From: Acidimicrobiales bacterium
Lineage (GTDB): Bacteria > Actinomycetota > Acidimicrobiia > Acidimicrobiales > SHLQ01
Length of the DNA: 56,887 nucleotides
NCBI GenBank assembly: GCA_051011595.1
Contig: JBPCTQ010000118.1
Coordinates: 1-56,887 of the forward strand
Direction of reading: 5' to 3'
A model generated the notes under the pieces. That model searched no databases and was not told the DNA's origin. It saw nothing but the letters and a program-made list of their open reading frames with translations. Positions 9,310-25,543 of this stretch are shown one piece after another. The translations under genes were made by a program, and so were the position numbers. Within the stretch, counting starts at the first letter, position 1. Each line of letters opens with the position of its first letter.

Positions 9310-9362
9310 TCTACCAATCCCACCCCCCGGACCACGGTCACCGGGCCGATAGGGTCGCCGCC

Positions 9363-10193
9363 ATGAGCGGCCCCATGGCGACAGTGTGGTTCGACGGCCA
9401 GCTCGTCGATCGCGAACTGGCCCATGTGGCCCCCACCGAACACGGTCTGACGGTGGGCGACGGCGTGTTCGAGACGCTCAAGGTCGTCGACGGCACCCCG
9501 TTCGCGCTGCGCCGTCACCTGCGGCGACTTCACCGCAGCGCCGACGGCATGGGCCTGGCGGCCCCCGAGACGCGGCTGTTGGCCAAAGCCGCCCGAGCCG
9601 TGTGCGAAGCCAATCCTGGCGCCACCAAACTCCGCATCATGGTCACCAGCGGCGATGGGCCGGCCGGCTCGGGGCGCGGCGACGGGCCATCCACCCTGGT
9701 GATCTTCGCCGACGACACGCCGCTGGCCACCGCACCGATCGTGCTGGCCACCGTGCCGTGGGCCCGCAACGAACGCAGCGCGGTGACCGGCATCAAGACC
9801 ACGTCCTACGCCGAGAATGTCCTGGCGCTGCAGTGGGCGCACCGCGAGGAGGCCGACGAGGCCGTGTTCGCCAACACCGTCGACCAACTCTGCGAGGGCA
9901 GCGGGACCAACATCTTCGTGGTGCTCGACGACCGGCTGATGACCCCGCCGCTCAGCTCGGGGTGCCTCGCCGGCATCACCCGAGAACTGCTGCTCGAGGT
10001 CACCGACGCGGTCGAGGCACCCATCCCGATGAGCGAACTGGACCGCTGCACCGAGATCTTCGTGACGTCGTCGACCCGCGACGTCGCAGCCGTTGCCTCG
10101 ATCGACGGAAGACAACTGCCGGCGCCCCCGGGACCCCACACCCGGGCCGCGACCGTCGCCTTCGCCACTCTGGCCGCCGATCTCGATCCCTAG
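9363..10193 (+). CDS. Class IV (fold type IV) aminotransferase, aminodeoxychorismate lyase-like
   Basis: 276 aa, HGLTVGDGVFETLKV...RHLRRLHRSA pattern. Its size fits ADC lyase or D-amino-acid aminotransferase rather than IlvE. Confidence 0.7.
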   Translation: MSGPMATVWFDGQLVDRELAHVAPTEHGLTVGDGVFETLKVVDGTPFALRRHLRRLHRSADGMGLAAPETRLLAKAARAVCEANPGATKLRIMVTSGDGPAGSGRGDGPSTLVIFADDTPLATAPIVLATVPWARNERSAVTGIKTTSYAENVLALQWAHREEADEAVFANTVDQLCEGSGTNIFVVLDDRLMTPPLSSGCLAGITRELLLEVTDAVEAPIPMSELDRCTEIFVTSSTRDVAAVASIDGRQLPAPPGPHTRAATVAFATLAADLDP

Positions 10194-11038: not shown

Positions 11039-12796
11039 GTGTTCACCAAGGTCCTGATCGCCAACCGAGGCGAAATCGCCGTTCGAGTCATCCGCGCCTG
11101 CCAGGAGCTCGGCATCGGCACCGTCGCCGTGTATTCCGAGCTCGATCGTGAGGCACTACACGTACGGCTGGCCGACGAGGCCTACGCCCTGGGTGGCGAG
11201 ACCGCCGCCGACAGCTATCTCAACACCGACGCCATCCTCGACGCCATCGATCGCAGCGGGGCCGAGGCCGTGCACCCCGGCTACGGGTTCTTCTCCGAGA
11301 ACGCCGACTTCGCCAGGGCGATCTCGGAGCGGGGTGTGGCCTTCATCGGTCCGCCGGCCGAGGCCATCGAGGTCATGGGCGACAAGATCTCGGCCCGCCA
11401 GGCGGCCGAGAAGGTCGGAGTCGACGGTGTACCCGGCACCACCGACCTCATCACCGACCCCGAGCAGGTTCGCACCTTCGGGGCGTCACACGGGTACCCC
11501 ATCGCCATCAAGGCGGCCTACGGCGGCGGCGGGCGGGGCATGAAGGTGGTGCCCGATGCCGACTCGGTCGAAGAGGCCATCGAGTCGGCCCAGCGCGAGG
11601 CCATGTCCTACTTCGGGCGCGACGAGATCTACATGGAGCGCTACCTCACCAAACCCCGCCACGTCGAGGTCCAGGTGCTGGCCGACAGCCACGGTCACTG
11701 CGTCTACCTCGGCACCCGCGACTGCTCGGCCCAGCGGCGACACCAGAAGCTCATCGAAGAAGCACCGGCGCCGGGCATCGACGAGGCCATCCTCACCGCC
11801 ATGGGTGAGGCCGCGGTGAAGGTGGCCCAGGGTTGTGACTACGTGAACGCCGGGACCGTCGAGTTCCTCTACGAAGCCGGCGAGTTCTTCTATCTCGAGA
11901 TGAACACCCGGCTCCAGGTCGAACATCCGGCCACCGAGCTCATCACCGGCCTCGATCTGGTCGAGCAGCAGCTCAAGGTGGCGGCCGGTGAACCCCTGGC
12001 GTTCACCCAGGACGACGTGGTCATCCAGGGTCATGCCATCGAGGTGCGCATCAACGCCGAGGACCCGGCCGAAGGGGCGTTCCTGCCCTCGCCGGGCACC
12101 ATCACCACCCTCGACACCCCCGACGGGTACGGGGTCCGGTTCGACGCCGGATACTCCGCCGGCGACGAGATCAGCCAGTTCTACGACAACCTCATCGGCA
12201 AGCTGGTGGTGTGGGGCCACGACCGCGAGACGGCCCGCCGCCGAGCCCTCCGAGCGCTACGCGAGCTCCGAGTGGACGGTGTGGCCACCACCATCCCGGC
12301 CGATGTGGCCATCCTCGAACACCCCGACTTCATCGCCATCGAACACTCCACCAAGTGGGTCGAGGAGGTGCTCGACCTCACCGGTGTGGGCGCCTCGATC
12401 GACGCCGCCGAAGGCGACGACGCCGAAGCCAAGGTCCGCCGCGACATCGCCGTGGAAGTCAACGGCAAACGCTTCTCGGTGAGCATGTGGGTTCCCGAAC
12501 AAGCCGGCACGGTGTCGGCCGGCGACGGCGGTCCGGCTCGCCGGGGCCGTCGGGGCGGCACCGCAGCAGGCGGCGGGGCCGCGTCGGGTGAGGTCACCGT
12601 GCCCATGCAGGGCACCATCTTGAAGGTGTTGGTCAACGAGGGCGACACGGTCTCGGCCGGCGACACCGTGGTGGTGCTCGAGGCCATGAAGATGGAGAAC
12701 AACATCGAAGCCGACAAGGACGGCACGGTGGCCGACGTCAAGGTCGCCGAAGGCGACTCGGTGGGCAGCGGCGACGTCGTGATCGTGATCGAGTAG
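11039..12796 (+). CDS. accA: Acyl-CoA carboxylase alpha subunit (biotin carboxylase plus BCCP domain)
   Basis: GTG start; MFTKVLIANRGEIAVRVIRAC; ATP-grasp core; C-terminal biotinyl-lysine motif VVVLEAMKMEN. Confidence 0.9.
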   Translation: MFTKVLIANRGEIAVRVIRACQELGIGTVAVYSELDREALHVRLADEAYALGGETAADSYLNTDAILDAIDRSGAEAVHPGYGFFSENADFARAISERGVAFIGPPAEAIEVMGDKISARQAAEKVGVDGVPGTTDLITDPEQVRTFGASHGYPIAIKAAYGGGGRGMKVVPDADSVEEAIESAQREAMSYFGRDEIYMERYLTKPRHVEVQVLADSHGHCVYLGTRDCSAQRRHQKLIEEAPAPGIDEAILTAMGEAAVKVAQGCDYVNAGTVEFLYEAGEFFYLEMNTRLQVEHPATELITGLDLVEQQLKVAAGEPLAFTQDDVVIQGHAIEVRINAEDPAEGAFLPSPGTITTLDTPDGYGVRFDAGYSAGDEISQFYDNLIGKLVVWGHDRETARRRALRALRELRVDGVATTIPADVAILEHPDFIAIEHSTKWVEEVLDLTGVGASIDAAEGDDAEAKVRRDIAVEVNGKRFSVSMWVPEQAGTVSAGDGGPARRGRRGGTAAGGGAASGEVTVPMQGTILKVLVNEGDTVSAGDTVVVLEAMKMENNIEADKDGTVADVKVAEGDSVGSGDVVIVIE

Positions 12797-12809
12797 TCGT
12801 CGACTACTC
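12791..12809. terminator. Palindrome between convergent accA and lpdA that embeds both stop codons (possible bidirectional terminator)
   Basis: gagtagtcg t cgactactc: 9-nt perfect inverted arms. TAG of accA (12794-12796) and CTA (the lpdA stop on minus, 12804-12806) lie in the arms. No clear U-tract. Confidence 0.35.
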
Positions 12810-14171
12810 GGCCGCCTCGGCCAACGCCTCGGCCAACGACGGGTGCACCAACAGCGAGTCGATCAGGTTGTTGACCGTGAGCGTGGCGTTCACGGCGATG
12901 GCCAACACCGATATCAACTCGGCCGCGTGCCGACCGACGATCGATCCCCCCAACACCACACCGGTGGCCGGGTCGGACACGATCTTGACGAACCCGCGGG
13001 CATCGTCGTTGATGAGCGCCTTGGCTGAGACCGAAAAGGGCACCTTGGTGACCCGGATTTTGCGGCCTTCGGCAAAGGCGTCGGCCTCGGCCAGGCCCAC
13101 GTCGGCGATCTCGGGTTCGGTGAAGATGGCCGAGGCGGCCTTGTCGTAGTCGAGGTGTTTGTGGGGCAGGTCGTGCATCCCCATGATGTGCTCGGCGATC
13201 TTGCGGCCCTGCATGGAGGCGACCGACGACAGGGGCAGTTTTCCCGAGAGATCACCACCGATGTAGATGTGCGGGACCGATGAACGGCAGTGATGGTCGA
13301 TGGGCACGTAGCCGCCCTCGTCGACGAACACCCCGGCGGCGTCGAGGCCCAGGTGTTCGGAGTTGGGGATCGAACCAATGGCCAACAGCGCATGTGACCC
13401 TTCGGCCACCCGTCCGTCGTTGCAGTTGACCCGTACCGCGTCGGGCAGCCGCTCGATACCCGTGGCTCGCGCCCCCTTGAACAGCGCCACTCCACGATCG
13501 AGGAAGTTCTCCTCCAGCGCGGCGGCCACCTCGGGGTCCTTGCCGGGCAGGACGTGCTGGCGACTGACGATGAGGGTGACGCGGGCACCGAAGCTGGCGA
13601 ACATGTGGACGAACTCCACGCCGGTGACTCCTGAGCCGACCACCACCAGGTGATCGGGCATCAGGGTGGGGGGATAGGCGTGGCGGGTGGTGAGCACCCG
13701 CTCGCCGTCGATTTCGGCCCAATCGGGTACACGGGGGCGACTCCCGGTGCCGAGCACGACGGCGTCGGCCTCGAGCTCGACGCGCTCACCGGTGGCCGCC
13801 TCGGCCACCACCTCGTGCGATCCCACCATCCGGCCCGAGCCCTCGATGATGCGGACTCCCTGGCTCTCGAGCAGGCTGATGGTGGAGGTGGTGAGCCGGG
13901 CCTCGATGGTGGCCAGTCGGTTCCGGAGATTGTCGAGATCGACCTCCGGTCGGACCTCTTCGAGTCCCATGCCGCGTGACCGGGCCAGGAACGACATGGC
14001 TCCACCGGTGGCGATCATCGCCTTGCTGGGTATGCAGTCCCAGAGATGGGCCGCCCCACCCACGATGTCGCGTTCGATCAGCACCACCTCGGCACCCAGT
14101 CGGGCCGCGTGGGTGGCCGCTGCGTTGCCCGCCGGGCCGGCACCGATGATGACCACGCGAGTCGCAACCAT
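12804..14171 (-). CDS. lpdA: Flavoprotein disulfide reductase family, LpdA (Rv3303c)-type NAD(P)H quinone reductase
   Basis: VVIIGAGPAGNAAA FAD motif. GGAAHLWDCIPSK has only one Cys of the usual CxxxxC, as in mycobacterial LpdA. Start trimmed to MVATRVV (14171); ATG 14183 is an alternative. Confidence 0.8.
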   Translation of the reverse strand: MVATRVVIIGAGPAGNAAATHAARLGAEVVLIERDIVGGAAHLWDCIPSKAMIATGGAMSFLARSRGMGLEEVRPEVDLDNLRNRLATIEARLTTSTISLLESQGVRIIEGSGRMVGSHEVVAEAATGERVELEADAVVLGTGSRPRVPDWAEIDGERVLTTRHAYPPTLMPDHLVVVGSGVTGVEFVHMFASFGARVTLIVSRQHVLPGKDPEVAAALEENFLDRGVALFKGARATGIERLPDAVRVNCNDGRVAEGSHALLAIGSIPNSEHLGLDAAGVFVDEGGYVPIDHHCRSSVPHIYIGGDLSGKLPLSSVASMQGRKIAEHIMGMHDLPHKHLDYDKAASAIFTEPEIADVGLAEADAFAEGRKIRVTKVPFSVSAKALINDDARGFVKIVSDPATGVVLGGSIVGRHAAELISVLAIAVNATLTVNNLIDSLLVHPSLAEALAEAAE

Positions 14172-14262
14172 GGGCGGCACCATACCGGGCCCGGCCTGAC
14201 CGACCCGGGAGGGCCGGCGGGGAGACGCTGGTCTTGGATCGGGATCCGCTAGCCTGACCGCC

Positions 14263-14493
14263 ATGATTGGTTACTTCGATGCCGGCACCGGCACCATGAT
14301 CATCTCGGCCGTGGCGGCGGGATTCGCCGGGATTGTCATGTTCGGGAAGTCGGTCTGGTACAAGCTGGCCTTCTGGCGCAAGCCCCAGGACAGCTCGATT
14401 GATCAGGCCGTCAACGTCGACCTCGACGATCTCGAAGGCACCGACGGACTCGACATCGGCGAGATCGACGACGCCGAGCTCGAGATCAACTGA
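14263..14493 (+). CDS. Small membrane protein with acidic C-terminus (unknown function)
   Basis: 76 aa, MIGYFDAGTGTMIISAVAAGFAGIVMFGKSVWYKLAFW then a D/E-rich tail. GC3-rich codons; the 3' end overlaps the convergent gene by 8 nt. Confidence 0.45.
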   Translation: MIGYFDAGTGTMIISAVAAGFAGIVMFGKSVWYKLAFWRKPQDSSIDQAVNVDLDDLEGTDGLDIGEIDDAELEIN

Positions 14494-15607
14494 TCGCTGC
14501 GGCCAACCAAGCGGCCGCGGCTTCGGCCGAATGACCGACGTTGTACACCGCGGCGTCACGCCGCTCGACCAGATCGGCCGCCCACTGGTCGGTTGATGAC
14601 GTCAGGTCGTCGATGGCGGGCACCAGCCGGTCGAGATCGGCCGGGTCGACCACGGCGCCGATCTCGGGCCGGAGTTGCCGCTCGATGGGTTCGATGTCGA
14701 GTTCGGACCACGCCGGGTTGTTGACCTTGGCCGGCGTGTCGATCGACACCACCGGCCGGGCCAGACCCAGGGCGTAGTCGAAGGCGGCACCCGACCAGTC
14801 AGAGATCAGCACACTCGACCGCAGCAGCGACGATCGATCCCGCATGTCGGTCTCGACGTGGAGGCGGCCGTGGCCGCCATGGGTGGCCGACAACTCGAAC
14901 GCCAGGTCGGGCAGGCGGCGCTGGGTCATGGGATGGAGACGCACCACCACCTCGTACTCGGCGGCCAGGAGCCGTTCGACGATGCGGGCGCCGACGTCGG
15001 TCTCCATGAACGCATCGTCGCCCCAACTGCCGGCGACCACGACCACCCCGGATTCGGGCCGAGATGCGGCCGACTCCTCGATGAGCGCATCCAATCGTCC
15101 GTAGCCGTGTTTGACCAACCGGCGGCGGTCGAGACCATGGAGTTGCTCAGCGGCCCGCAGTTCGCGCCCGTGGTGGGGCCCCACACACAACACGGTGTCG
15201 AAGGCGTCGAAGGCCCCCGGTCGGTACACCATGTGGGTGCTGACCACGGCGTGGAAGAGATATACGTAGTGCACCGGGTGCAGCGACCGTTTGACGGCGT
15301 AGGTGTCGAAATCGGGTGTGGTGGTCAACAACATGCCGGCCTGTAGGTCCCGCATCAGCACGTTGCGAACACTGCCCGATCCGATGTTGTAGGCCTGCAG
15401 ACGGGGGTGGTCACGGTCGAGCACCGGATCGTCGGCCTCGCCGGTCAGATACGACACGGCCACGTCGTGATGGTCGATCAGCCGCTCGACCACCGGGCCC
15501 AGGTGGGCGTAGTCGCTGCGCCCTTCGGCGAAGACCACCATTCGGCGCCAGTCGGAGTCGGATTTCTTGAACGCCTTGGCCGCGGACTTCTCGTCGCGCC
15601 GGCTCAC
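14486..15607 (-). CDS. CDP-glycerol glycerophosphotransferase-like (TagB/TagF family) enzyme
   Basis: GTG start inside a GTGA overlap (15604-15607). VVVAGSWGDD...VVVRLHPMT and VLISDWSGAAFDYALGLARPVVSI match the TagF-family C-terminal pattern (LITDYSS.xFD). Confidence 0.65.
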   Translation of the reverse strand: MSRRDEKSAAKAFKKSDSDWRRMVVFAEGRSDYAHLGPVVERLIDHHDVAVSYLTGEADDPVLDRDHPRLQAYNIGSGSVRNVLMRDLQAGMLLTTTPDFDTYAVKRSLHPVHYVYLFHAVVSTHMVYRPGAFDAFDTVLCVGPHHGRELRAAEQLHGLDRRRLVKHGYGRLDALIEESAASRPESGVVVVAGSWGDDAFMETDVGARIVERLLAAEYEVVVRLHPMTQRRLPDLAFELSATHGGHGRLHVETDMRDRSSLLRSSVLISDWSGAAFDYALGLARPVVSIDTPAKVNNPAWSELDIEPIERQLRPEIGAVVDPADLDRLVPAIDDLTSSTDQWAADLVERRDAAVYNVGHSAEAAAAWLAAAIS

Positions 15608-16068
15608 GTCACCTCGAGGCCCGCCAGGAGCTCGTTCACCACCGGAGTCAGCACCCGGCGGCGGCGATGGCTACCGATCACCACGTAGAGGCAGAACGCC
15701 CGGCCACCTTCGTGAAAGAAGATCTGGAGCCCGCCCTGGCCGGCCTGAGGCCGTTGCAGGGTGTGGGTGGCGAAGTCATCGGGCGGCACCGATCGGGGCA
15801 CACCCTCGCGAGCGAACAACGCCGTCCCGGCCGACTCACTGCCATAGTCGACCAGGCACACGAGCACTCCGCTCCGGCCCATGATCTCGACGGCACCGCT
15901 GCCGAAATCACCTCGCTCAGCCGGCAGTGCGAAGTTGGCCGCATGCAGCACCGGGTTCTCGACCCCGCCGGCCGATCGCTCCGTTTCATCGGGTTCCCGA
16001 CGATAGATGGCACCGTCCCACCCGGTGGGGAGGTCGACCGCCATGCCGTGACCACGTAGCACCGTCAC
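15604..16068 (-). CDS. Hypothetical cytoplasmic protein (about 150 aa)
   Basis: Start placed at the GTG overlapping the upstream TGA (GTGA 16065-16068); ATG 16044 is an alternative. I recognise no motif. The longer N-terminal extension in the ORF track overlaps the upstream gene. Confidence 0.5.
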   Translation of the reverse strand: MTVLRGHGMAVDLPTGWDGAIYRREPDETERSAGGVENPVLHAANFALPAERGDFGSGAVEIMGRSGVLVCLVDYGSESAGTALFAREGVPRSVPPDDFATHTLQRPQAGQGGLQIFFHEGGRAFCLYVVIGSHRRRRVLTPVVNELLAGLEVT

Positions 16069-16655
16069 CAGACGAACCCCATCGCCATACCGGCCGCCAG
16101 TGCTGCGGTGGCTCCGGCCAACAGCCGGGCCGGCGCGGCGGCCCGGGCCAGGTCGGTGTGCAGCCGCCGCAAGGACTCCGGGTCGTGCACCCGGGCCACG
16201 ACGCCGATGAGCGCCCCCCGGGTGAGCCCGAACAGACCACAGATGAGCAGCGCCGACCAGAAGCTGCCGCTGGCCAGCGCGATCACGGCGGTGAGATACA
16301 CGAGGGAGGTGGTGACGTAGGTGAACCATCCCGCCCCCAGCTGGAACCCGAAGCCCACGCCGTAGACCCACCCGCGGTAACGACCCAACCAGTCCTCATT
16401 GACCTGCCGGTGCCACGACGGCAGCGGTCGTCCTCGGCGAGTGAGCTCCGACGCGAAGGCAGCGATGGCGACCACCGCGACCACGAGCCAGCGCACGGCC
16501 GGGTCGATCCACACACCGACCGGCAGCGCCGCCGCACCGACCACGATGCCGGTGACGAGCGATCCGGCGAGGGCGCCGACCACGAAGGCGGCGGCGGTGG
16601 TGGACCATCGGTTGTTTCGGGTCCGCTCGCCGAGCGGATGGATGCTGGACAGCAT
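16065..16655 (-). CDS. Polytopic membrane protein of unknown function
   Basis: 196 aa with about 5 hydrophobic spans (AAAFVVGALAGSLVTGIVVGAAAL, WLVVAVVAIAAF, VYGVGFGFQLGAGWFTYV, FWSALLICGLFGL, LLAGATAALAAGMAMGF). Only one Cys, so not CcdA/DsbD-like. Confidence 0.6.
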   Translation of the reverse strand: MLSSIHPLGERTRNNRWSTTAAAFVVGALAGSLVTGIVVGAAALPVGVWIDPAVRWLVVAVVAIAAFASELTRRGRPLPSWHRQVNEDWLGRYRGWVYGVGFGFQLGAGWFTYVTTSLVYLTAVIALASGSFWSALLICGLFGLTRGALIGVVARVHDPESLRRLHTDLARAAAPARLLAGATAALAAGMAMGFVW

Positions 16656-16732
16656 CGACTCACCTCAAGGCGACCAGGTGGACCGAACGGCGGCCATCAC
16701 CGCAGCCACCGAACCCACGAGCACGAACCCGC

Positions 16733-17494
16733 TCATCGGTCACCCTCGGGATCTTCGTTCTCGGGCAGGTACAGGCGGGGGTCGCCGGGGGCGATACCGG
16801 CCCGGGCCAACTCGTCGTCGATGCGGGACTCACGCACCTCGCCGGTGGCCACCGAAGCAGGTGATCGCAGTCCGTCACCGGTGAGTCCGGCATCGGCCAT
16901 CGCCTGCCCCAACAGGTCGCGCACCTGGTCCCACGAGGCCGCCGCCCCCTCGCCGACGATTCGGCGATCGCGGCCGTCGACCAACAAGAAGAAGGGCGAG
17001 ACGGGGACGTCGTAGTCGTCCCAGGCGGTCGAGGACTGCACCACCGTGACCCCTGGTGGGGCCAGCTGGGCCAGCCGGGCCGGACTCTCGGCTTCGGGAC
17101 CCTGGGTGACAACCACGAGGCGGGTGTCGGCGCCGGGGAGAACTCGCTGGTCGGGGTCGGCGAACGCCTCCCAGAAGGTGGCGCAGGTGAGACACCCCGA
17201 CGACAAGAACGCCACCAGCGTGAGATGGTCGGTTCCGACGACCGCCACCTTCAACGAACCTCCATCGAGGGTCGATCCCACGATGTCGTGGCCGATGCGG
17301 TCACCGGCGGGCCGCGGCTCGGGAACACCCGGACGGGTGCGAATCGACATGCCGGCGGCGGTGGGATCGAGCACGTCGTCGAGGCCGAGCTCGTGCAGCG
17401 CTCGCAACACCTCGGCGTGAGCTCGCAACATCCCGACGACGAGCACGGCGAGCAGCGCCACCACCACCGTGAGGGCCACCACCAGCGCGGTCAC
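16733..17494 (-). CDS. Membrane-anchored thioredoxin-fold protein (TlpA/MauD-like, CxxC)
   Basis: Start trimmed to the GTG in the GTGA overlap at 17491-17494. N-terminal TM VTALVVALTVVVALLAVLVVGML, then LVAFLSSGCLTCATFWEAF redox motif. Acidic C-terminal tail. Confidence 0.7.
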   Translation of the reverse strand: MTALVVALTVVVALLAVLVVGMLRAHAEVLRALHELGLDDVLDPTAAGMSIRTRPGVPEPRPAGDRIGHDIVGSTLDGGSLKVAVVGTDHLTLVAFLSSGCLTCATFWEAFADPDQRVLPGADTRLVVVTQGPEAESPARLAQLAPPGVTVVQSSTAWDDYDVPVSPFFLLVDGRDRRIVGEGAAASWDQVRDLLGQAMADAGLTGDGLRSPASVATGEVRESRIDDELARAGIAPGDPRLYLPENEDPEGDR

Positions 17495-19656
17495 GACACC
17501 TCCACGGTGCGACAGCCGAGCAAGGTGTTGGGTTGTCCGCCGACCTTGTCCTTGCCGTACACACACACCTCGCGGGTTCCGGACCCGGCGGGCACAGTGA
17601 TCTTGAAGCCGTGCCGCGACGAGTACCCGGGATTGACGGCAGCCACCCGCCCCTTGTGACGGTCGGCTCGCCCGGCCCCGGCGAAGACCCCGTCGACGTA
17701 GACGTGCACACCGGCCGGCCCGTCGGTGTCGGGATCGATGACCCAACCCCGGACGGTGACCTGGCCACTTCCCGGTTCGACCTTCTGGAGCCGGCCGAAC
17801 GGCGAACCGGTGGGGGTGGTGAAGCGGCTCCGGTCGAGGAGCACGGTACGACCGGGGCTCTGGCGGTCGCGGGCATGGACGCGCAGCTCGTGGGTGCCCG
17901 CGTCGACCGGTACCACGAAGTCGAACCCGCCGCCGCTGCCGTACCCGGGCACATCGGGACGGTCGCCGTCGGCCCGCACCCCACCCCAGAACACATCGTC
18001 GAGGTAGACGTGGAGGTTGACCGCTTTGGGTGTGTCCGGATCGGCCACCCAGCCCCGAACCCGGACCTCATCGGGGCCCACGGTGAGCGACTCGACCGCC
18101 CCCAATGGGGACCCGGTGGGCACCGAGACATCGGCGCAGTCGATGGTGGTACGACGACCGGACCCGCCATTGCGGGCCCGCAGGCAGACCTGGTGGGAGC
18201 CGGTGACACCCTCCACCACGATGTCGAAACCGTGATCAGGGCCGGCCTCGGGGAAGGCCTGGGCCACATCGGGTCGGGGCAGGTTGGCCCGCCGCGACAG
18301 CGCCACCTCGCCGTCGATCAACACGTCGACCATCGAGGCCTGTTCGATATCGGGGTCGATGACCCAACCGCGAAGGTACACACCACCCGCGACAGCTTCG
18401 ATACGGGCCGCCCCGAACGGAGACCCGTCCGGGACCACGACGTCGGCGCATCCGATGAGCGTGCGCTGACCTACACCTCGGTTGACGGCGTAGACACAGA
18501 CGCGGCGAGCGCCAGGGCCGGCTTCGACCGAGGCGGCGAACCCGTGGTCGGGGCCGAAGGCGCCGTAGTCGGTCAGGTCGGGACGAGCAAGATCGGCCCG
18601 AGCGAAGGCGACGAATTCGTCGTCGACATGGATCTCGACCCGGACGAAGTTGTCGGTGTTGGGGTCGATGGCCCAACCGACCACGTCGATGGTGCCGAAC
18701 GGGCTGGTGGTGGCCATCTCCAACTCGCCGAAGGGGTTGCCCCCGGGCACCGTCAGCCGTCGACAACCAATGGTGCGCAGCGACAATCCCTCCACCACGT
18801 TGGCGCACACGGTGTGGGTGCCAGGGCCGAGCGGAACCGACACGTCGAACCAGCGGACTCCCCCGTTCACGGCGTCGAATCCGGGCGGCGGCTCGGTGAG
18901 GGTGGCTTCGGTGTAACCGATCCCTTCAGCCCCCACCGTGATGGCGATGTTGGTCGGCGCTTGAGGGACGACATAACCCACGACCCGAACGCCGTCGGGG
19001 GCCAACTGCACGTCGACCACGTTGCCCTCGGGATTACCCGGGTCGATCTGCAGGCACGGTCGGTTGTGGAACCGCGTGTTGTTGTCGGTGCGTACCGCCG
19101 TGGTGCAGGTCGGATCGAGCAGCCAGGGCGGCGTACAGGTGACCACCCGGCACACGATGGGCCCCAGGCAGGCAATGCCCTGGTTGCACTGGCCATAACG
19201 GAACCCGGTGCACCCGGCCTTGCGGTTCCCGCAGCTGCCGGCCGCACAGCCACATCGAGTGCCCGAGCATGAACCCGAGCAGATCCCGCCCGAGCCACAG
19301 CCACAGGAGCCGCAGGAGGCGTTGCAGTCGAGGTAGTAGCGGGGTTGGGGTGAGCCGTTGTCGCAGTAACCGGACCCGTCGGCCTTCCACCACCCGCCGT
19401 AGCTGGTACCCGGCGGACAGCCGTTCACGCCGGTGGTGGTGCAGCAGAATTCGGTGTAGCCGTCACAGCAGGTGGCTCCGCAATCGCAACTCTGCCCCGA
19501 GCAGTTGCAGATGGCGGCGTAGGCAGTGGTGGGACGAAGTACGTAGGCAGCCGGGGCCACGGTCATGGCCGATCCGGCCAGCGCCCCTCGCCGCAGGAAA
19601 CCGCGGCGATCGGTGCGTCGTTCGAGGAAACGGGCGGCGCGATCGACAATGGTCAT
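17491..19656 (-). CDS. Tat-exported protein: cysteine-packed MauA-like N-terminal domain plus five tandem about 100-aa beta-type repeats
   Basis: 721 aa. Twin-arginine signal TDRRGFLRRGALAGSAMTVAPAAY. 26 Cys between aa 50 and 201, including GCPPGTSYGGWWKADGSGYC...RYYLDC. Repeats follow with the pattern GSPFG..V.VRGWVIDPD...RPDV...GPDHGF...H.VC...GC..V.VP. Confidence 0.8.
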   Translation of the reverse strand: MTIVDRAARFLERRTDRRGFLRRGALAGSAMTVAPAAYVLRPTTAYAAICNCSGQSCDCGATCCDGYTEFCCTTTGVNGCPPGTSYGGWWKADGSGYCDNGSPQPRYYLDCNASCGSCGCGSGGICSGSCSGTRCGCAAGSCGNRKAGCTGFRYGQCNQGIACLGPIVCRVVTCTPPWLLDPTCTTAVRTDNNTRFHNRPCLQIDPGNPEGNVVDVQLAPDGVRVVGYVVPQAPTNIAITVGAEGIGYTEATLTEPPPGFDAVNGGVRWFDVSVPLGPGTHTVCANVVEGLSLRTIGCRRLTVPGGNPFGELEMATTSPFGTIDVVGWAIDPNTDNFVRVEIHVDDEFVAFARADLARPDLTDYGAFGPDHGFAASVEAGPGARRVCVYAVNRGVGQRTLIGCADVVVPDGSPFGAARIEAVAGGVYLRGWVIDPDIEQASMVDVLIDGEVALSRRANLPRPDVAQAFPEAGPDHGFDIVVEGVTGSHQVCLRARNGGSGRRTTIDCADVSVPTGSPLGAVESLTVGPDEVRVRGWVADPDTPKAVNLHVYLDDVFWGGVRADGDRPDVPGYGSGGGFDFVVPVDAGTHELRVHARDRQSPGRTVLLDRSRFTTPTGSPFGRLQKVEPGSGQVTVRGWVIDPDTDGPAGVHVYVDGVFAGAGRADRHKGRVAAVNPGYSSRHGFKITVPAGSGTREVCVYGKDKVGGQPNTLLGCRTVEVS
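17494..18741 (-). repeat. Four tandem about 100-codon repeat modules inside CDS 17491-19656 (a fifth, degenerate copy extends to about 19050)
   Basis: Each module starts G(S/N)P(F/L)G and contains RGW.(I/A)DPD, RPD(V/L), (GPD)HGF. All but the third also carry a Cys pair (VC...GC). Confidence 0.8.
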
Positions 19657-20189
19657 GAGGATCCTCCGGCGGCGGAACGGGACGGGCCGACGTACACCAT
19701 GGCCTCGGGCAGCACCGTCAGTACCGCATAGGACAAGGCGGCGCCGAGGGTGACCACACCCGCGAACGGGAGGCCGTACCAGGGCTGGTCGGCCACGATC
19801 TGGTCGACGGAATCGATGGGGAAGAAGACGGCGGCCAGGCCCACCCCCGCCGCGGCCGCATTAAAAGTGATGTGGATGGCACCGGGGCTGGTGCCCGACG
19901 ATCCGAAACAGCCGCAGTTGGTGAGCCGGCCCGATCGGCGACCGACGGCCACGAACACCGCGAACCCGGCATATGTGAGGCCGAGCGCGGCGGCCGGGAG
20001 GGCGCCACCCCACACGAGCACCGAGGTTGCGATGGCCACTTCGGCCAGGGCGAAGGCGACGACGACCAGCGTCGACGACGGGAGGCCGACGGCATACAAC
20101 GCGGCGCGGGTGGCGGTGGGGCTCCACAACTTGGCCAGGCCGGCTGCAGCCAGCAGCAGGGCGCACATGATGATCGGACCGGCGAGCAC
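19653..20189 (-). CDS. MauE/DoxX-family-like redox-associated membrane protein
   Basis: 178 aa with 4-5 TM spans and the RLTNCGCFGSSG motif (CGC motif of MauE). GTG start (ATG 20168 alternative). Its stop overlaps the next start in ATGA at 19653-19656. Confidence 0.7.
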   Translation of the reverse strand: MLAGPIIMCALLLAAAGLAKLWSPTATRAALYAVGLPSSTLVVVAFALAEVAIATSVLVWGGALPAAALGLTYAGFAVFVAVGRRSGRLTNCGCFGSSGTSPGAIHITFNAAAAGVGLAAVFFPIDSVDQIVADQPWYGLPFAGVVTLGAALSYAVLTVLPEAMVYVGPSRSAAGGSS

Positions 20190-20280: not shown

Positions 20281-21639
20281 GTGACCCAGCCCGACCGGTC
20301 GACCGGACCTGTTCGTTCGGTTGTGGTCGCCACCCCCGAACCCCTCGCTCACCGCCGTGCGGGGCCTGCGGTCAGAGCCATTCGAACCGCCGAGACCCTG
20401 GCCGCTGAAGGCCATCGAGTCACGCTGGCGTCCACGGCCGCGGCTGGGCCCGACATCGAGGTCGACGGCTGCACGGTCGTGGACCGCCTCGCCGTCCCCA
20501 CCGACGCCGAGGTGTACGTGGTCACCGGTCGGGCCATGCTCGATCTCGCCTGGCTGGACGACTCGACGGCGGCGGTCGGGGTCGATCTCTACGACCCGTT
20601 CCAGCTGGAGGCCCTCCATCGGGGTGGCGACGACGAGATCCGGCGCATCGATCTGGTGGAGGGCGCCCATCGAACCCTGGCCGCCCAGTTCACCCGAGGC
20701 GATCGGTTCTTCTGTGCCAACGAACCGCAGCGTTCCTTGTGGTTGGGGTACCTCGGGGCGTTCGGGCGCCTCAACCCGGCCACCCACGACGCCGACCCGT
20801 CGGCGGCGGGACTGATCGAGTTGGCACCCTTCGGCGTCGACGGCGACGAACCGACCACCGGCCCGTCGCCGCTCCGCGCGCACCCGGGCATCGGCCCCGA
20901 TGACCCCATCGTGGTCTGGGCCGGCGGCCTGCACGACTGGCTCGATCCGGAGACGCTGGTTCGGGCCGCCGAGGTGGCCGCCCGGCGGCGCTCCGACCTG
21001 CGGGTGGTCTTCGTGGCCGGCCCTCCTCCCGCGGGCGACCCCACCGGTGCGCCCGAGCGGGCCCGGCGAGAGGCCGACCGTCTGGGCCTCACCGACCGGG
21101 TGGTGTTCTTCCATCCCGACTGGATTCCCCACGACCAGCGAGGTCCCATGTTGGTCGACGCGGCCATCGGGGTGTGTACCCATCGGCCCCACCTCGAGAC
21201 CCGGTTCTCTCATCGCACTCGTTTCCTCGACCACCTGTGGGCGGGGTTACCGACGGTGAGTACCGGCGGTGATCCGCTGTCGGCTCAGCTGGAGGCCGCC
21301 GGGGCGGCACTGATCGTCGAGCCGGGAGATCCCGACGGTGTGGCCGATGCCCTGGTCGACCTGCTCGACCACGACGACCGCCGCACCGGTATGGGCGACG
21401 CGGCCCGCGCCCTGGGCACCACCCTCCACTGGCCCGACACGCTCGCACCCATCGTGGACTGGGTGGCCTCGGCCGCCACCGCCCCCGACCGTCTCGACCC
21501 GGCCCTGGCGCACCGCCTGGGGCCCCAGGCCCACACATCACGCTCGGCGGTGTCACGACTGCGATTGCAGTGGCAGCGTGAAGGTGCGGCCGGAGTGCTC
21601 GACCGGGCCAGCCGCCGCGTGCGCCGTCCATCGTCGTGA
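20281..21639 (+). CDS. GT-B glycosyltransferase (GT4/GT1-like)
   Basis: 452 aa. IVVWAGGLHDWLDPETLVRA, then RVVFF..WIPHDQRGPMLVDAAIGVCTHRPHLETRFSHRTRFLDHLWAGLPTV, a GT-B C-terminal-domain pattern. Confidence 0.65.
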   Translation: MTQPDRSTGPVRSVVVATPEPLAHRRAGPAVRAIRTAETLAAEGHRVTLASTAAAGPDIEVDGCTVVDRLAVPTDAEVYVVTGRAMLDLAWLDDSTAAVGVDLYDPFQLEALHRGGDDEIRRIDLVEGAHRTLAAQFTRGDRFFCANEPQRSLWLGYLGAFGRLNPATHDADPSAAGLIELAPFGVDGDEPTTGPSPLRAHPGIGPDDPIVVWAGGLHDWLDPETLVRAAEVAARRRSDLRVVFVAGPPPAGDPTGAPERARREADRLGLTDRVVFFHPDWIPHDQRGPMLVDAAIGVCTHRPHLETRFSHRTRFLDHLWAGLPTVSTGGDPLSAQLEAAGAALIVEPGDPDGVADALVDLLDHDDRRTGMGDAARALGTTLHWPDTLAPIVDWVASAATAPDRLDPALAHRLGPQAHTSRSAVSRLRLQWQREGAAGVLDRASRRVRRPSS

Positions 21640-22922
21640 ACGACCACCCGCCGGTCAGAGCAGTGGTCGTGAACCACAACGGCGGTGAGCTGTTGAACCG
21701 CTGCCTGCAATCGCTGCAGGCCCTCGAGTGGCCGAACGACCGAATTCACATCGTGGTGGCCGACAATGCCAGCACCGACAACAGCCTCGACTCCGTCCCC
21801 ACCGGCGTGGAGATCATCGAGATGGGCACCAACGCCGGATTCGGGGCGGCCATCAACCGGGCGGTGTCGGCGCCGGGCCCGGCGTTCGATGCCGTGTTGT
21901 TGCTCAATCCCGACGCGTGGATCGAACCCGACGCACTGGAGAAGCTGCGTCACGTGCTCGATACCGATCCCGGCGTCGGCGCGGCCTGTCCTCGCATCCT
22001 GTTCGATCGTCCCATGGCCACCGTCACCATCACGGCCGACGAGGGTATGGACTGCCGGCTCGGCGCCGCCGAGGTCGACGGAACCGACGTCCGCGACTCG
22101 GTGCACGGGCTGGAAGGGGCCGAGCGAACGCCGAACCGGTTCGGGACATCGACCTGGAAGCTGAGCGCCCGCAGCACCCTGCACGTCCCCCATGGCTCGC
22201 GTCTGCGGGTCGAACTCGAGGCCCGACGCCGGGGCCGGGTCACGATCGCCGCCGACGCCGATCCGGTCACGGCGCTGGTCGGCCCGGGCGCAACGTCGAT
22301 CGATGTGGCCCTCGGCGATGAACCACTCACCGTCGTCCAGAACGACGGATCCTCGGTGGCCGCCGACGGCACCGGCACCAATCGGCACTTCCATCGACCC
22401 CTCTCGGCCGTCGACTCCCGACCGGCCGACGTGTTCGCCTGGTGTGGCGCCGGCGTGCTGCTCCGATCGGCGATGCTCGACCAGATCGGCTCGTTCGCCG
22501 AACCCTTCTTCCTCTACTACGAGGACACCGACCTGGCTTGGCGGGGCCAGGCCGCGGCGTGGCGCAGCACCCTGGTGCCCGACGCGGTGGTGCATCATCG
22601 GCACTCGGCCACCACCGGCCAGGGTCGGGCCGTCACCGAGGTCCACCAACACCGAAACCGGGTGCTGATGATGGCCCGGAACGCACCCCTGGGTGCGGCC
22701 TTGGGCACGCTGATCGGGCTGGTGCTGACCGCCGGGTCCACCACGGTGCGGGGATGTGCGGCGCGACTGCGCGGCTCGGGCGACCTCACCCGGGCCGGGT
22801 ACCGCTGGCGCTCGGTTGTGGCCGCGCTGGCCAAGCTGCCGTGGGCGCTGTCCACCCGCCGCAGGCTCGGGCGGCGAGCTCGTCGGCCCCGACGCCAGGT
22901 CTACGCCGAGCTGGAGCCGTGA
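21636..22922 (+). CDS. GT2-family glycosyltransferase (rhamnosyltransferase-like) with a large internal insertion
   Basis: GTG in a GTGA overlap with the upstream stop. VVVNHNGGELLNRCLQSL, VVADNASTDNS, LLLNPDAW, FAWCGAGVLLR, FFLYYEDTDLAWR. Confidence 0.8.
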   Translation: MNDHPPVRAVVVNHNGGELLNRCLQSLQALEWPNDRIHIVVADNASTDNSLDSVPTGVEIIEMGTNAGFGAAINRAVSAPGPAFDAVLLLNPDAWIEPDALEKLRHVLDTDPGVGAACPRILFDRPMATVTITADEGMDCRLGAAEVDGTDVRDSVHGLEGAERTPNRFGTSTWKLSARSTLHVPHGSRLRVELEARRRGRVTIAADADPVTALVGPGATSIDVALGDEPLTVVQNDGSSVAADGTGTNRHFHRPLSAVDSRPADVFAWCGAGVLLRSAMLDQIGSFAEPFFLYYEDTDLAWRGQAAAWRSTLVPDAVVHHRHSATTGQGRAVTEVHQHRNRVLMMARNAPLGAALGTLIGLVLTAGSTTVRGCAARLRGSGDLTRAGYRWRSVVAALAKLPWALSTRRRLGRRARRPRRQVYAELEP

Positions 22923-22971
22923 CCGCCGAGGAGCAACGGCCTGGCGCACCTCAGCCTCTACAGTCGAACCC

Positions 22972-24003
22972 GTGCAGATCGTCTATCTGACGGCTCGACC
23001 GTCGGTCCTGGCCCAGACGCTCGACCACGTCGGGCACTACATGCCGTTCATCGACCAGGTCGTGGCGGTGTGCCCGGCGGCCGCGGCCGACGCGGTGGCC
23101 ACCATCTCCGGCATCGAGGTCATCACCGACGAACACCTCACCGGGCAGTCGGCGGCCACCATCGCGGCCTGGGACCACACCACGCGGAACTTCCGACTAC
23201 GGGCCGCCATGGCCGACCACCCGGTGATCGCCGAAGAATTCGTGATGGCCGACGACGACAACCGGCCACTCCAGGCCATCGACCGGTCGTTCTTCACCGA
23301 CAACCGAGGCCGCACCCGCAACTACTGGTTCACCGAGCTCGATGCGTGGAAACGCGACGAGACCCCGTTCGATCAGGGCCTGACCCATGCCCTGCTGGTC
23401 CTACGCCAACTCGGCGTCGACCGACCCCTGGCCTACGCCTCCCATCAACCCCAGCTCATCGACCGGGCGCTCTTCGGTGAGGCCGTCGGGCGGGTGATGG
23501 CCACCGCCTCCCGATACCCCCTCGACGAGTGGTCGATCTACTTCAACCTGGCCCGAGCGGGCGCCCCGGAACGATTCGCTCCCCCGGAGCCGTTCGTCAC
23601 GCTGGGCTGGCCCCAGTTCCCAGGTGAATGGCTCCACATGGTGCCGCCCGCCGGGTACCTGTTCGAGAACCATCATCCCGAGCTGTACCAACCGGGCGGC
23701 CTGTTCGAGGGGCTCCCCACCGACCTGGTTCCCGAGACCGCCGATGCCGACAACCTCGAGAAGGCCGTTCGCTGGCATCGATTCGGGCTGGCCCTCGGAC
23801 GCCTCGACATCGACGATGCGGTGACCAATCCGTACACCCAGGGCAAACCCCATCGAAGAGCCTTCATGCGCGGCACCCGTTCGTTGCGCAAGGTCGTCGA
23901 ATACGCCACCATCGCCGAACGCGAGGCCCTCACCGACCTGACCGGCCGCGTCCGTCGGCTCGAACAGCGACTGGACGAGCTGGCCGTCGATGACGACGAC
24001 TGA
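22972..24003 (+). CDS. Hypothetical protein in the glycosyltransferase operon (DDD motif, C-terminal coiled-coil-like tail)
   Basis: Start trimmed to GTG 22972 (VQIVYLTARPS), because the upstream part of the ORF overlaps the GT2 gene. Contains EEFVMADDDNRPL and ASHQPQLIDRALF. Ends TDLTGRVRRLEQRLDELAVDDDD. Confidence 0.5.
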   Translation: MQIVYLTARPSVLAQTLDHVGHYMPFIDQVVAVCPAAAADAVATISGIEVITDEHLTGQSAATIAAWDHTTRNFRLRAAMADHPVIAEEFVMADDDNRPLQAIDRSFFTDNRGRTRNYWFTELDAWKRDETPFDQGLTHALLVLRQLGVDRPLAYASHQPQLIDRALFGEAVGRVMATASRYPLDEWSIYFNLARAGAPERFAPPEPFVTLGWPQFPGEWLHMVPPAGYLFENHHPELYQPGGLFEGLPTDLVPETADADNLEKAVRWHRFGLALGRLDIDDAVTNPYTQGKPHRRAFMRGTRSLRKVVEYATIAEREALTDLTGRVRRLEQRLDELAVDDDD

Positions 24004-25543
24004 GCCGGCGCCGGACCACGTCGAGTCCGAAGAACCCGAGGGCGGCCCGCCACTCCCCCGCGCCGCCCGTATCGCCATCGCGCTGGCGGTGGCCGCCGGC
24101 ATCGTGGTCCGGTTCGTGGCCGACACGCCCTTGTGGCTCGACGAGGCATTGTCGGTGAACATTGCCGACCTCCCGGCCGGCGACATCGACGACGCCCTGC
24201 GCCGTGACGGCCATCCGCCGCTGTACTACTTCTTGTTGAAAGCCCACATGGCGGTGTTCGGGCAATCCGATCTGGCGGTGCGGGCGTTGTCGGGTCTGAT
24301 AGCGGTGGCCACCCTGCCGCTGGCGTTCGTGGCCGGACGCCGGCTGGGGGGCGTTCGGACGGCGTGGCTCAGCCTTGCGCTGTTCGCCGCCTCACCCTTC
24401 GCCATCCGGTACGCCACCGAGACCCGGATGTACACGTTGCTCATGTTGTTGGCCCTGGTTTTGTGGCTGCTGGTCGACCGGGCCCGCACCGCGCCAACCG
24501 CGGGCCGGCTGGTGGCCATTGCGGTGGTGGCCAGCGCATTGTGTTGGACGCACTACTGGGCGTTCTGGTTGTTGGCGGCCTTCGGGTTGTGGGCCTTGGT
24601 GGCGGCGGTACGCGGGCTTCCCGACTTCCCCATTCGGTCCGGTCGTCTTGTCGCAGGTGCGCTGGTGGTGGGTGGTGTGTTGTTCCTCCCCTGGGTGCCG
24701 GCGTTGCTCGATCAGCTCGCCCACACCGGTACCCCCTGGGGTGATCCCAGTCGGCCGGCCGAGGTGGCGGTGCTCACCCTGTTCGAGCTGGGTGGTGGCC
24801 CGCGGTCTGAAGCCCAGTTGGTGGGCATGGCCATCACCACCCTGGCCGTGCTCGGTGTCCTCGCTCGGCCGGGTGACGACAAACGCATCGAGCTGGATCT
24901 ACGTGTGCCGCTCCCGGCCCGGGAATTGGCCGGCCTGGTGGTGGTGACCATGGCCCTGGGTTTGCTGGTCAACGTGGTCACCGGCAGCACCTTCCAGCCT
25001 CGGTACGCCGCGGTGGTGGTGCCTTTCGTGATGTTGCTGGCCGCTCGGGGGCTGGGGGCGTTTCGGGGCCCCGCCCTCGGCATCGTCGCCAGTCTGGTGG
25101 TGGTGGCCGGGTTGGCCGCCGGCGTGGGGGTGAGTGGCCTGGAACGAAGCCAGGGTGAGGTGGTGGCCGCAGTCATCAACGCGGACCACGGTGACGGCGA
25201 CGTGGTGGTGTTCTGCCCCGACCAGCTGGGCCCCTCCACCGACCGCTACCTCGACGACGTGGTCAACGGAGTCACGTTCCCGGACGGGGCGTCACCGACG
25301 CTGGTCGACTGGCGCGACTACGCCGATCGGGTCGATGCGGCCGACCCGGTCTCGTTCATCACCGAGGTCGACGCCGCCCACGACGGCACCATCTGGCTGG
25401 TCATGGCCACGTCCTACCGGACACTGGAGGGGGTGTGCGAAGAGATGAACGCCACCCTGTTCGCCTCCCACTCCGGCGAGTTGGTGGTGCGACCCAACAC
25501 CGACTTCTACGAGCCGGCGGCCTTGTACCGATTCGACCCATGA
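23990..25543 (+). CDS. GT-C fold membrane glycosyltransferase (GT39/ArnT-PMT-like)
   Basis: 517 aa, many TM spans. N-terminal loop LWLDEALSVNIA...RRDGHPPLYYFLLKAHMAVFG (DE motif plus PPLYY) is typical of family 39/83 enzymes. Soluble C-terminal domain. Confidence 0.65.
   Translation: MTTTEPAPDHVESEEPEGGPPLPRAARIAIALAVAAGIVVRFVADTPLWLDEALSVNIADLPAGDIDDALRRDGHPPLYYFLLKAHMAVFGQSDLAVRALSGLIAVATLPLAFVAGRRLGGVRTAWLSLALFAASPFAIRYATETRMYTLLMLLALVLWLLVDRARTAPTAGRLVAIAVVASALCWTHYWAFWLLAAFGLWALVAAVRGLPDFPIRSGRLVAGALVVGGVLFLPWVPALLDQLAHTGTPWGDPSRPAEVAVLTLFELGGGPRSEAQLVGMAITTLAVLGVLARPGDDKRIELDLRVPLPARELAGLVVVTMALGLLVNVVTGSTFQPRYAAVVVPFVMLLAARGLGAFRGPALGIVASLVVVAGLAAGVGVSGLERSQGEVVAAVINADHGDGDVVVFCPDQLGPSTDRYLDDVVNGVTFPDGASPTLVDWRDYADRVDAADPVSFITEVDAAHDGTIWLVMATSYRTLEGVCEEMNATLFASHSGELVVRPNTDFYEPAALYRFDP

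Follow-up and report, generated by a model that had tools for sequence, protein, structure and literature searches.

Why would a bacterium keep maturation genes of methylamine dehydrogenase (MADH) beside a gene for an exported, cysteine-rich protein in a stretch of DNA from which the enzyme itself is missing? This question is raised by a region of 56,887 nucleotides from an Acidimicrobiales bacterium (contig JBPCTQ010000118.1 of the assembly GCA_051011595.1; the whole stretch is hereafter called the window), in which six open reading frames (ORFs), here numbered 1 to 6, run head to tail on the minus strand (Table 1). The analysis suggests that the first five of them are a cassette devoted to making one secreted protein: homologues of MauE, MauD and MauF, the last of which is proposed to be a selenoprotein, would constitute a thiol/selenol-disulfide relay dedicated to folding the cysteine-rich domain of the gene 2 product. 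On the strength of sequence comparisons, we attribute a probability of about 0.6 to this interpretation. The GC content of the window is high (0.65-0.71) and its closest relatives are Acidimicrobiales metagenome-assembled genomes.

Table 1 Features of the cassette and its flanking gene 6, in the order of transcription
Feature	Coordinates	Strand	Basis
Six head-to-tail ORFs	14486-20189	minus	Read directly from the strand
Gene 1, MauE-like polytopic membrane protein, 178 aa	19653..20189	-	Pfam PF07291
Gene 2 residues 1-47, twin-arginine (Tat) signal peptide, DRRGFLRRG, end AYA/A	19516..19656	-	Sequence reading
Gene 2 residues 48-205, cysteine-rich domain (158 aa), 26 Cys	19042..19515	-	Family alignment
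Gene 2 residues 206-721 and stop, five repeats of ~100 aa (207-304, 306-410, 411-513, 515-606, 617-720)	17491..19041	-	Self-BLAST
Gene 3, MauD-like, N-terminally anchored thioredoxin-type protein, 253 aa	16733..17494	-	hhalign
Gene 4 full length, MauF-like six-transmembrane protein, proposed selenoprotein, 223 aa	16065..16736	-	hhalign, BLASTP
In-frame TGA, proposed selenocysteine codon, residue 24, motif WSP-U-G	16665..16667	-	Aligned codon across loci
Selenocysteine insertion sequence (SECIS)-like element	16622..16656	-	RNAalifold, covariation, covariance model
Hairpin 1, GAUGCU-NNNN-AGCAUC	16641-16656	-	RNAalifold
Hairpin 2, loop GGN	16622-16638	-	RNAalifold
Gene 5, conserved protein without signal peptide, 154 aa	15604..16068	-	Synteny, invariant LP..RGDFGSGAVE.M
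Gene 6, TagB/TagF-type glycerophosphotransferase-like, 373 aa	14486..15607	-	Pfam PF04464, E 1.6e-8

The original prediction, made from the sequence alone, had described the six genes as a single operon with mauE-, mauA- and mauD-like members. A direct reading of the strand bears out the head-to-tail arrangement as well as four 4-nt overlaps between consecutive genes (ATGA at 19653-19656; GTGA at 17491-17494, 16065-16068 and 15604-15607). The fifth junction had been taken for a 77-nt gap, which is wrong, as these nucleotides are coding: the ATG at 16736 shares letters with the stop codon of gene 3 (ATGA, 16733-16736) and opens 23 codons that are followed by an in-frame TGA and then, in the same frame, by gene 4. 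The gene would thus begin at this overlap, with the TGA being read through, and the start given by the ORF tool (ATG 16655) corresponds to codon 28 of the longer frame. A scan for promoters and terminators gave nothing usable within the operon, Rfam had no match anywhere in the window, and genes 2 to 5 have no significant match in Pfam or NCBIfam.

The extent of the unit was studied by tblastn over 81 related loci. Gene 3 was found in 75 of them, gene 5 in 69, genes 1 and 4 in 55 each and gene 6 in a single one; the unit therefore consists of genes 1 to 5, which are a conserved five-gene cassette of Acidimicrobiia. The expected conservation of the neighbourhood in related genomes is thereby borne out over about 80 loci, for five of the six genes originally grouped together. 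Gene 6 is overlap-coupled to the cassette in the window but adjoins it elsewhere only in the closest relative (L002), and it was rejected as a member. Actinospongicola halichondriae carries genes 1, 2, 3 and 5. The neighbours of a divergent member of the LGFP type (L086:321-2205) include crgA and genes for a rhomboid and a PPIase, surroundings which suggest that the cassette may also occur outside Acidimicrobiia, in the class Actinomycetes.

The relationship of these genes to the mau genes was studied with the canonical Methylobacterium mauFBEDACJGLMN cluster (locus L083) as a reference. Family alignments were built from related loci and each of them was compared by hhalign to all 11 Mau proteins of this cluster. 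The resulting specificity matrix is clean: gene 1 matches MauE only, gene 3 MauD only, gene 4 MauF only and gene 5 none of them. The assignment of gene 1 to MauE on the basis of its CGCFG motif is confirmed, since the protein scores 51.5 bits against Pfam PF07291 over residues 6-122 (curated cut-off 27) and its family aligns with the Methylobacterium MauE with a probability of 83% (E 1e-5), the SCGCFG of the former standing opposite the DCGCFR of the latter; the CGC motif (Cys92-Gly-Cys94) is encoded at 19908-19916. One database protein (P0258, 512 aa) reads as if its N-terminus were MauE-like and continued into the cysteine-rich domain, and it may be either a true fusion or a frameshifted assembly.

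Gene 3 has the architecture that had been proposed for it, with a single hydrophobic segment, a transmembrane (TM) helix, at its N-terminus and a CLTC motif (Cys101/Cys104, at 17183-17194), but no thioredoxin or MauD model of Pfam or NCBIfam recognizes it. There is no NCBIfam match at E <= 1, and the protein stays below the cut-off of the MauD equivalog TIGR02661 (188.6 bits), on which the MauD of L083 scores 373 bits; it is therefore a MauD homologue and not an equivalog. Its likeness to MauD appears in profile comparison only, where the family matches genuine MauD with a probability of 95% (E 4e-8, 169 columns) along an alignment that spans the TM helix, the LLR motif, the CxxC and the PY(F) loop. 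The third homologue had been overlooked. The gene 4 family matches MauF with a probability of 96.5% (E 1e-9, 146 columns; BLASTP E 6e-6), and no Pfam or NCBIfam model recognizes the gene 4 protein or, likewise, the canonical MauF.

The rest of the MADH system is missing from the window and from the loci scanned. A tblastn search of the window for MauB, MauC, MauG, MauJ, MauL, MauM and MauN found nothing (E > 0.1), none of 84 loci scanned has a relative of any of them, and no ORF of the window supported by its GC content at third codon positions (GC3) contains a CxxCH motif. The claim that the window lacks mauB, mauG, c-type cytochromes and, as far as amicyanin goes, cupredoxins thus stands, and so does the co-occurrence of the conserved genes without mauB and mauG, to which amicyanin can be added. 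The cassette is not an amine dehydrogenase, as the heavy chain, MauG and amicyanin are all missing from the window and from the loci scanned.

Gene 4 is proposed, from the comparison of homologous loci, to be a selenoprotein gene, in which the conserved cysteine of MauF is encoded by UGA as selenocysteine (Sec). Its N-terminus reads MSGFVLVGSVAAVMAAVRSTWSP-U-GESMLSSIHPLGER, where MSGFVLVGSVAAVMAAVRSTWSP, the TGA and GESMLSSIHPLGER lie in one frame. The aligned codon is TGA in 44 of the 55 loci scored, cysteine (TGT/TGC) in the remaining 11 and never TAA or TAG. One of the TGA loci, L043, comes from a cultured organism, Salinilacustrithrix flava EGI L10123. The TGA loci, including the window, read RSTWSP-TGA-GESMLSSIHP and the cysteine loci RSTWSP-Cys-GLSMLSTITP. 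The canonical MauF has a cysteine at the corresponding site (TWSPCGYSSLC), with WSP-[U/C]-G aligned by eye, and the second cysteine of its CGYSSLC is not kept in the gene 4 family. The coding sequence is conserved on either side of the TGA, the N-terminal extension is kept in the 44 loci, and WSP-U-G sits at the end of the first of the six TM segments. The cysteine-type loci (L006, L007, L009, L010, L016, L019, L024, L039, L040, L041 and L046) have a rearranged cassette, in which gene 4 either follows gene 5 or is encoded on the other strand, and share the distinct motifs GLSMLST and HHRRQV; they seem to form a clade of their own.

The Sec/Cys pair comes together with an RNA structure. Two hairpins lie at +11 to +45 from the UGA, one of them with an invariant G in its 3-nt apical loop. 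Pairing is observed in 99.1% of the cells of the alignment, against 35-50% when the partners are slid, and covariation is found at the pairs 30-46 (CG 20, UA 16, UG 5) and 34-42 (CG 30, UA 11, UG 3). Hairpin 1 is complete in 44/44 TGA loci and in 0/11 cysteine loci, and hairpin 2 is nearly complete in 43/44 and 2/11, respectively. In each TGA locus a covariance model of the element finds a single site, with a score of 62-79 bits, and this holds for L086 and L020, on which it was not trained, whereas the cysteine-type genes score 19-45 bits and nothing else exceeds 20 bits in 1.08 Mb.

The cassette is also physically linked to Sec genes. In L027 (3624-7735), selD, selA, selB and tRNA-Sec stand directly upstream of the cysteine-rich gene; in L053, a scan that covered selD, selA and tRNA-Sec found selD/selA matches at 3886-5571 and tRNA-Sec at 7656-7751, in the same positions as in L027. 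In L071 (~11772-16334), selB, selA and selD lie directly downstream of the cassette, matches to selA and selD stand at the same place in L070 (~11772-16334), and in the divergent locus L086 selA-selD abut the cassette (7565-9930). At least three different arrangements of adjoining Sec genes can be distinguished among these loci. The linkage suggests that the MauF-like protein is a principal client of Sec decoding in the L027, L053, L070, L071 and L086 genomes. The SelD encoded beside the cassette is of the Cys type, hence there is no second SECIS to compare. Sec use has lately been reported in another order of Acidimicrobiia (bioRxiv 10.64898/2026.04.03.716425).

The putative substrate of the system is the gene 2 product. 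Its leader, DRRGFLRRGALAGSAMTVAPAAYVLRPTTAYA followed by A, has the twin-arginine motif, the hydrophobic region and the AxA site, and export is predicted. A motif of the RRxF/L type precedes the domain in 125/140 family representatives, and L.P..AYA is conserved before it. The domain family comprises 481 clusters at 50% identity, with no fewer than 541 matches across species-representative genomes, nearly all of them from Acidimicrobiia; the identity of 55-85% across the class is a very strong conservation. Sixteen cysteines are conserved family-wide, and GWWK, RYYxDC and FRYG are invariant. The number of cysteines per domain varies between 16 and 30, is even in 223/247 members, and Cys50, 52, 59 and 64 are lost together as a quartet. 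These even but varying counts and grouped losses therefore point to disulfides and not to metal sites; the binding of a metal or an Fe-S cluster was rejected, because the cysteines are even in number yet varying, and lost in pairs or quartets. The AlphaFold2 (AF2) model of the domain is well supported (predicted local distance difference test (pLDDT) 88, predicted TM-score (pTM) 0.84). A Foldseek search of 350,542 PDB chains with this model returned no significant fold match, and single-sequence and profile searches found nothing in Pfam, NCBIfam or the PDB sequences.

The repeats downstream of the domain, for which no Pfam model was matched, are swapped in the homologues of gene 2 for SLH, ricin, LGFP or CW_binding_2 modules. 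The presence of wall-binding modules in the homologues argues for wall display of the gene 2 protein, in agreement with what had been suspected of the substrate. The same repeat (G-S/N-P-F-G...GW.IDP...RPD...HGF...VC.YA...GC) occurs twice in another protein of the window (772 aa, 36003-38321, plus strand) and at the C-terminus of an Actinospongicola protein with an HExxH motif (L001:14522-15589). Another ORF of the window (319 aa, 31743-32702, minus strand) has 12 cysteines, several of them in a probably over-extended N-terminus; a hidden Markov model of the gene 2 domain does not match it, and it is unrelated to this domain.

The fifth member of the cassette, conserved and overlooked at first, has 1391 homologues, all unnamed and none with Pfam domains. 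Its AF2 model has a pLDDT of 92, and a search of the PDB with the family profile gave chance matches only.

The charges that flank the membrane segments allow a topology to be predicted. In the MauF-like family, the Sec-bearing loop and the loops alternating with it contain 3.8-4.8 lysines and arginines, against 0-0.3 in the other loops; the CGC loop of the MauE-like proteins shows the same charge pattern, and the anchor of the MauD-like proteins is followed by 2.3 such residues and preceded by none. The loops that carry Sec and CGC, as well as the MauD-like domain, are thus all predicted to be on the cytoplasmic side. A possible mechanism can be outlined on this basis. Gene 2 would encode an envelope protein exported by the Tat pathway and cleaved by signal peptidase, with a domain of ~158 residues held by 8-13 disulfides. 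The MauE-, MauD- and MauF-like proteins would form a relay that introduces or shuffles these disulfides, in which the MauE-like protein would hand electrons on within the membrane, and gene 5 may encode a cytoplasmic adaptor or chaperone-like protein. Folding would probably precede export and take place where the membrane faces the cytoplasm; this timing is favored because the redox motifs are predicted to be cytoplasmic and Tat carries folded cargo. Judged by eye with the same positive-inside rule, the CGC loop of the canonical MauE, the SPCG loop of MauF and the MauD domain (L083:4598-8561) also look cytoplasmic. Pre-export folding may thus extend to MADH itself.

Several observations weigh against this interpretation. 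The topology is drawn solely from the positive-inside rule, and MauD-type proteins are usually taken as periplasmic. The fold of gene 5 has weak matches (Tsi3, EagT6, PsbP and the MucB class; best Foldseek E 5e-3, TM about 0.4). The 57-kb window contains no sel genes and no tRNA genes, tRNA-Sec included, so that we infer Sec decoding in the source organism from its relatives. A Shine-Dalgarno (SD)-like GGUGAG with an AUG follows the TGA and could in principle allow re-initiation. Finally, the resemblance of the substrate to the MADH light chain is slight. The Pfam family of the light chain (PF02975) does not match gene 2 or 32 members of its family at E <= 10, and the family profile finds no match in the PDB. 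Run against one MauA sequence and against an alignment of 120 MauA members, hhalign aligns only 13-16 columns around CPPGT, with a probability of 1.7-12%. The light chain 2j56_M ranks 5th among the 350,542 chains in the Foldseek search, with an E value of 7.5 and a query TM-score (TMq) of 0.23 over 63 columns.

The main rival keeps the same parts but places them outside the membrane, where they would act after export, in the manner of DsbB/VKOR-DsbA with a CcdA/DsbD-type partner: the MauE-like protein would re-oxidise the MauD-like protein, the MauD-like protein would oxidise the domain, and the MauF-like selenoprotein would give reducing power for isomerisation. Secreted domains with many disulfides usually undergo oxidation outside the cell, and the single N-terminal hydrophobic segment of the MauD-like protein could be a signal anchor. 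The extracytoplasmic location also corresponds to the conventional view of MauE and MauD, whose function is outlined in PMC7794033 with a citation of van der Palen 1997. Yet the positive-inside statistics put all three redox motifs on the cytoplasmic side family-wide, the conserved Tat leader of the substrate implies folding before export, and the MauF-like profile found no relative of CcdA, DsbD or DsbB in the PDB. We consider this location rather unlikely.

If the relay acts on the cysteine-rich domain as we favor, it may be asked whether this domain is related to the natural client of the Mau factors. The original prediction saw in gene 2 a twin-arginine signal and a domain resembling the MADH light chain. 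The leader and the density of cysteines hold, but the resemblance does not extend to a library match: of the two families expected from the profile searches, MauE is significant and MauA is not, and the gene 2 domain is not a member of PF02975. The global mode of hhalign gave only an end-to-end overlap of the domain with MauA, which is meaningless. Locally, the hhalign score is 24.5, compared with 13.6 +/- 2.7 for shuffles, and exceeds 60/60 column shuffles; the Smith-Waterman score is 69, compared with 43.8 +/- 8.6 in shuffled sequences (z 2.9, p about 0.016). The alignment puts C57, C63, D65-G66, C71, C72, CPPGT, W90, C98 and D110-C111 of gene 2 opposite C23, C29, D32-G33, C36, C38, CPPGT, W57, C61 and D76-C77 of MauA, and the seven gene 2 cysteines concerned are invariant in the family. 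In MauA itself the disulfides join residues 23-88, 29-61, 36-121, 38-86, 46-77 and 78-109. MauA is also Tat-led (SRRGF motif, L083). These signals are weak, but the hhalign and Smith-Waterman scores, the Foldseek rank, the Tat leaders and the co-inheritance of three small-subunit factors all point to MauA, and on balance it seems probable that the N-terminal half of the domain is a remote homologue of the MADH light chain.

Such a relationship would not entail the same chemistry. The cofactor of the light chain, tryptophan tryptophylquinone (TTQ), involves Trp57 and Trp108. The invariant W89/W90 can be aligned with the former, whereas no conserved tryptophan stands at the position of the latter and the only other one, Trp178, is not conserved; lacking an equivalent of Trp108, the domain therefore cannot form TTQ. 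It could still be imagined that the domain is related to the light chain and acts as a catalyst, with a cofactor in the form of a protein-derived quinone or cross-link on Trp89/Trp90, that it handles an envelope substrate with no heavy chain to assist it and that it needs MauE, MauD and MauF as MADH does. The best local alignment, which sets D65-G66, CPPGT, W90 and D110-C111 against Asp32-Gly33, CPPGT, the TTQ Trp57 and Asp76-Cys77 and the first seven MauA cysteines against family-invariant ones, would suit this idea, as would the class-wide identity of the domain and the retention of all three factors specific to the small subunit. It is nonetheless quite improbable, given that neither the sequence nor the fold similarity is significant, that a conserved second tryptophan is wanting, that a di-haem enzyme of the MauG type is missing from the window and the loci scanned and any CxxCH protein from the GC3-supported ORFs of the window, and that the conserved set has no flavoprotein.

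The least tenable alternative is that the TGA is an ordinary stop and gene 4 either a pseudogene or split into a 23-aa peptide and a 196-aa protein re-initiated at the AUG 9 nt downstream, with no selenoprotein at all: the SD-like sequence, the start chosen by the ORF tool and the lack of sel genes and tRNA-Sec in the window would fit, but re-initiation is unlikely because the AUG is part of the invariant hairpin 1 stem and the methionine is also conserved in the cysteine-type genes, which do not have the hairpins, and an ordinary stop is very hard to reconcile with a codon that is TGA in 44/44 loci, never TAA or TAG, and cysteine in 11 loci and in MauF, or with the sel machinery that stands physically beside the cassette in L027, where it comprises tRNA-Sec, and in L071 and the selA and selD adjoining it in L053, L070 and L086. 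The SD-like GGUGAG and the AUG of codon 28 occupy 16653-16664 (minus strand), directly 3' of the TGA. A GGN-GAR (Gly-Glu) after the TGA is kept in nearly all Sec-type genes, and most cysteine-type genes have Gly-Leu there. This stretch may belong to the recoding signal, or it may serve as a fallback site for re-initiation.

The closest known system is the mauF/E/D-mauA part of the MADH clusters. The proteobacterial cluster (L083) and the cassette both have homologues of MauE, MauD and MauF beside a Tat-led, disulfide-rich protein, and the CGCF, CxxC and SP-C/U-G motifs are kept. In contrast to this cluster, the cassette is devoid of MauB, MauG, amicyanin, MauJ, MauL, MauM and MauN, belongs to an actinobacterium of the Acidimicrobiia and adds the conserved gene 5. 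Its substrate is outside PF02975, larger, endowed with 16-30 cysteines and fused to wall-binding modules, and its MauF is shortened at the N-terminus, has Sec in place of one cysteine and has lost the other.

A second parallel is found in Streptomyces, where orphan mauE genes (with mauD), in the absence of other mau genes, lie beside a gene whose product has at least 8 cysteines; these are decRiPPter candidate families of peptides that are made on ribosomes and modified after translation (RiPPs), and it was proposed that the Streptomyces MauE and MauD modify the cysteine-rich product (Kloosterman et al. 2020, PMC7794033). Both cases associate actinobacterial MauE and MauD homologues with an adjacent gene for a cysteine-rich product. 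They differ in that the Streptomyces candidates were reported as RiPP precursor genes, whereas the cassette has a domain of 158 aa on a Tat protein of 300-720 aa, and PMC7794033 reports no MauF homologue, selenocysteine or gene-5 family.

The DsbB-DsbA, VKOR and CcdA/DsbD-ResA/TlpA systems resemble the cassette in combining a polytopic membrane protein carrying redox cysteines with an anchored thioredoxin-fold CxxC partner and in serving secreted clients. However, no sequence relationship to them was found in the PDB profile searches (chance matches only for the MauF-like family), and the cassette differs by its redox motifs predicted on the cytoplasmic side, its Tat substrate and its selenoprotein component. 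Known thiol-redox selenoproteins (DsbA-like, TlpA-like UGC and the rhodanese/DsbD fusion TsoB, among others), as tabulated in a 2026 review of prokaryotic selenoproteins (PMC13188914), share with gene 4 a Sec/Cys pair at a redox motif, a UGA with a stem-loop and the dependence on selABCD. Gene 4 differs from them by its motif, WSP-U-G at the end of the first segment of a six-TM protein, and by having no Pfam or NCBIfam model. The text of this review contains no terms beginning with 'Mau' or 'methylamine', the inspected portions of its family table list no MauF-like family, and literature searches brought up no relevant report of a selenoprotein related to MauF or Mau. Selenocysteine in a MauF homologue thus appears to be new, as a selenoprotein family unlisted in those portions; the five-gene architecture with its sel linkage and the cysteine-rich domain family also appear to be new.

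Genes related to envelope glycans surround the cassette in the window. They include, at 20281-25543 on the plus strand, GT1- and GT2-family glycosyltransferases and a PMT_2-type mannosyltransferase, and, on the minus strand, gene 6, which is TagB/F-like. Such surroundings are peculiar to the source lineage.

The central proposal of the original prediction, a Mau-type maturation set that serves another, wall-displayed cysteine-rich Tat substrate in place of an amine dehydrogenase, survives, but it was incomplete: the MauF homologue and its selenocysteine, together with gene 5, had escaped it, and gene 6 had been wrongly counted in. The importance of this set for the Mau proteins themselves can be considered first. 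MauF, MauE and MauD have since the 1990s been known to be needed for the production of the MADH small subunit, as Chistoserdov reportedly found in 1994, no mechanism being given. Where Sec and Cys replace each other naturally at one site, this is an accepted sign that the cysteine is a catalytic redox residue; the pair observed here therefore points to the cysteine of the MauF SPCG motif as a redox-active site, a question that is now testable, and the cassette is a first functional clue for MauF. For MauE and MauD, a role in small-subunit production is credited to van der Palen 1997 in the citing statement of PMC7794033. In its widest form, which we advance tentatively as a possibility that the present comparisons leave rather doubtful, the proposal would be that of a selenoprotein-dependent disulfide machine at the cytoplasmic face, distinct from Dsb/VKOR, that folds a multi-disulfide domain before Tat export; by homology it would explain why the MADH light chain needs MauF, MauE and MauD, and the exported domain might carry a new tryptophan-based cofactor.

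For the Acidimicrobiia, an abundant and poorly studied class of actinobacteria, the cassette brings to light a large, unannotated and highly conserved disulfide-rich surface domain. The combination of a Tat leader with redox motifs predicted to face the cytoplasm raises the possibility that disulfides are formed before export. In several genomes the MauF-like family lies directly beside the sel genes, and it may be a main reason why these Acidimicrobiia keep the Sec machinery.

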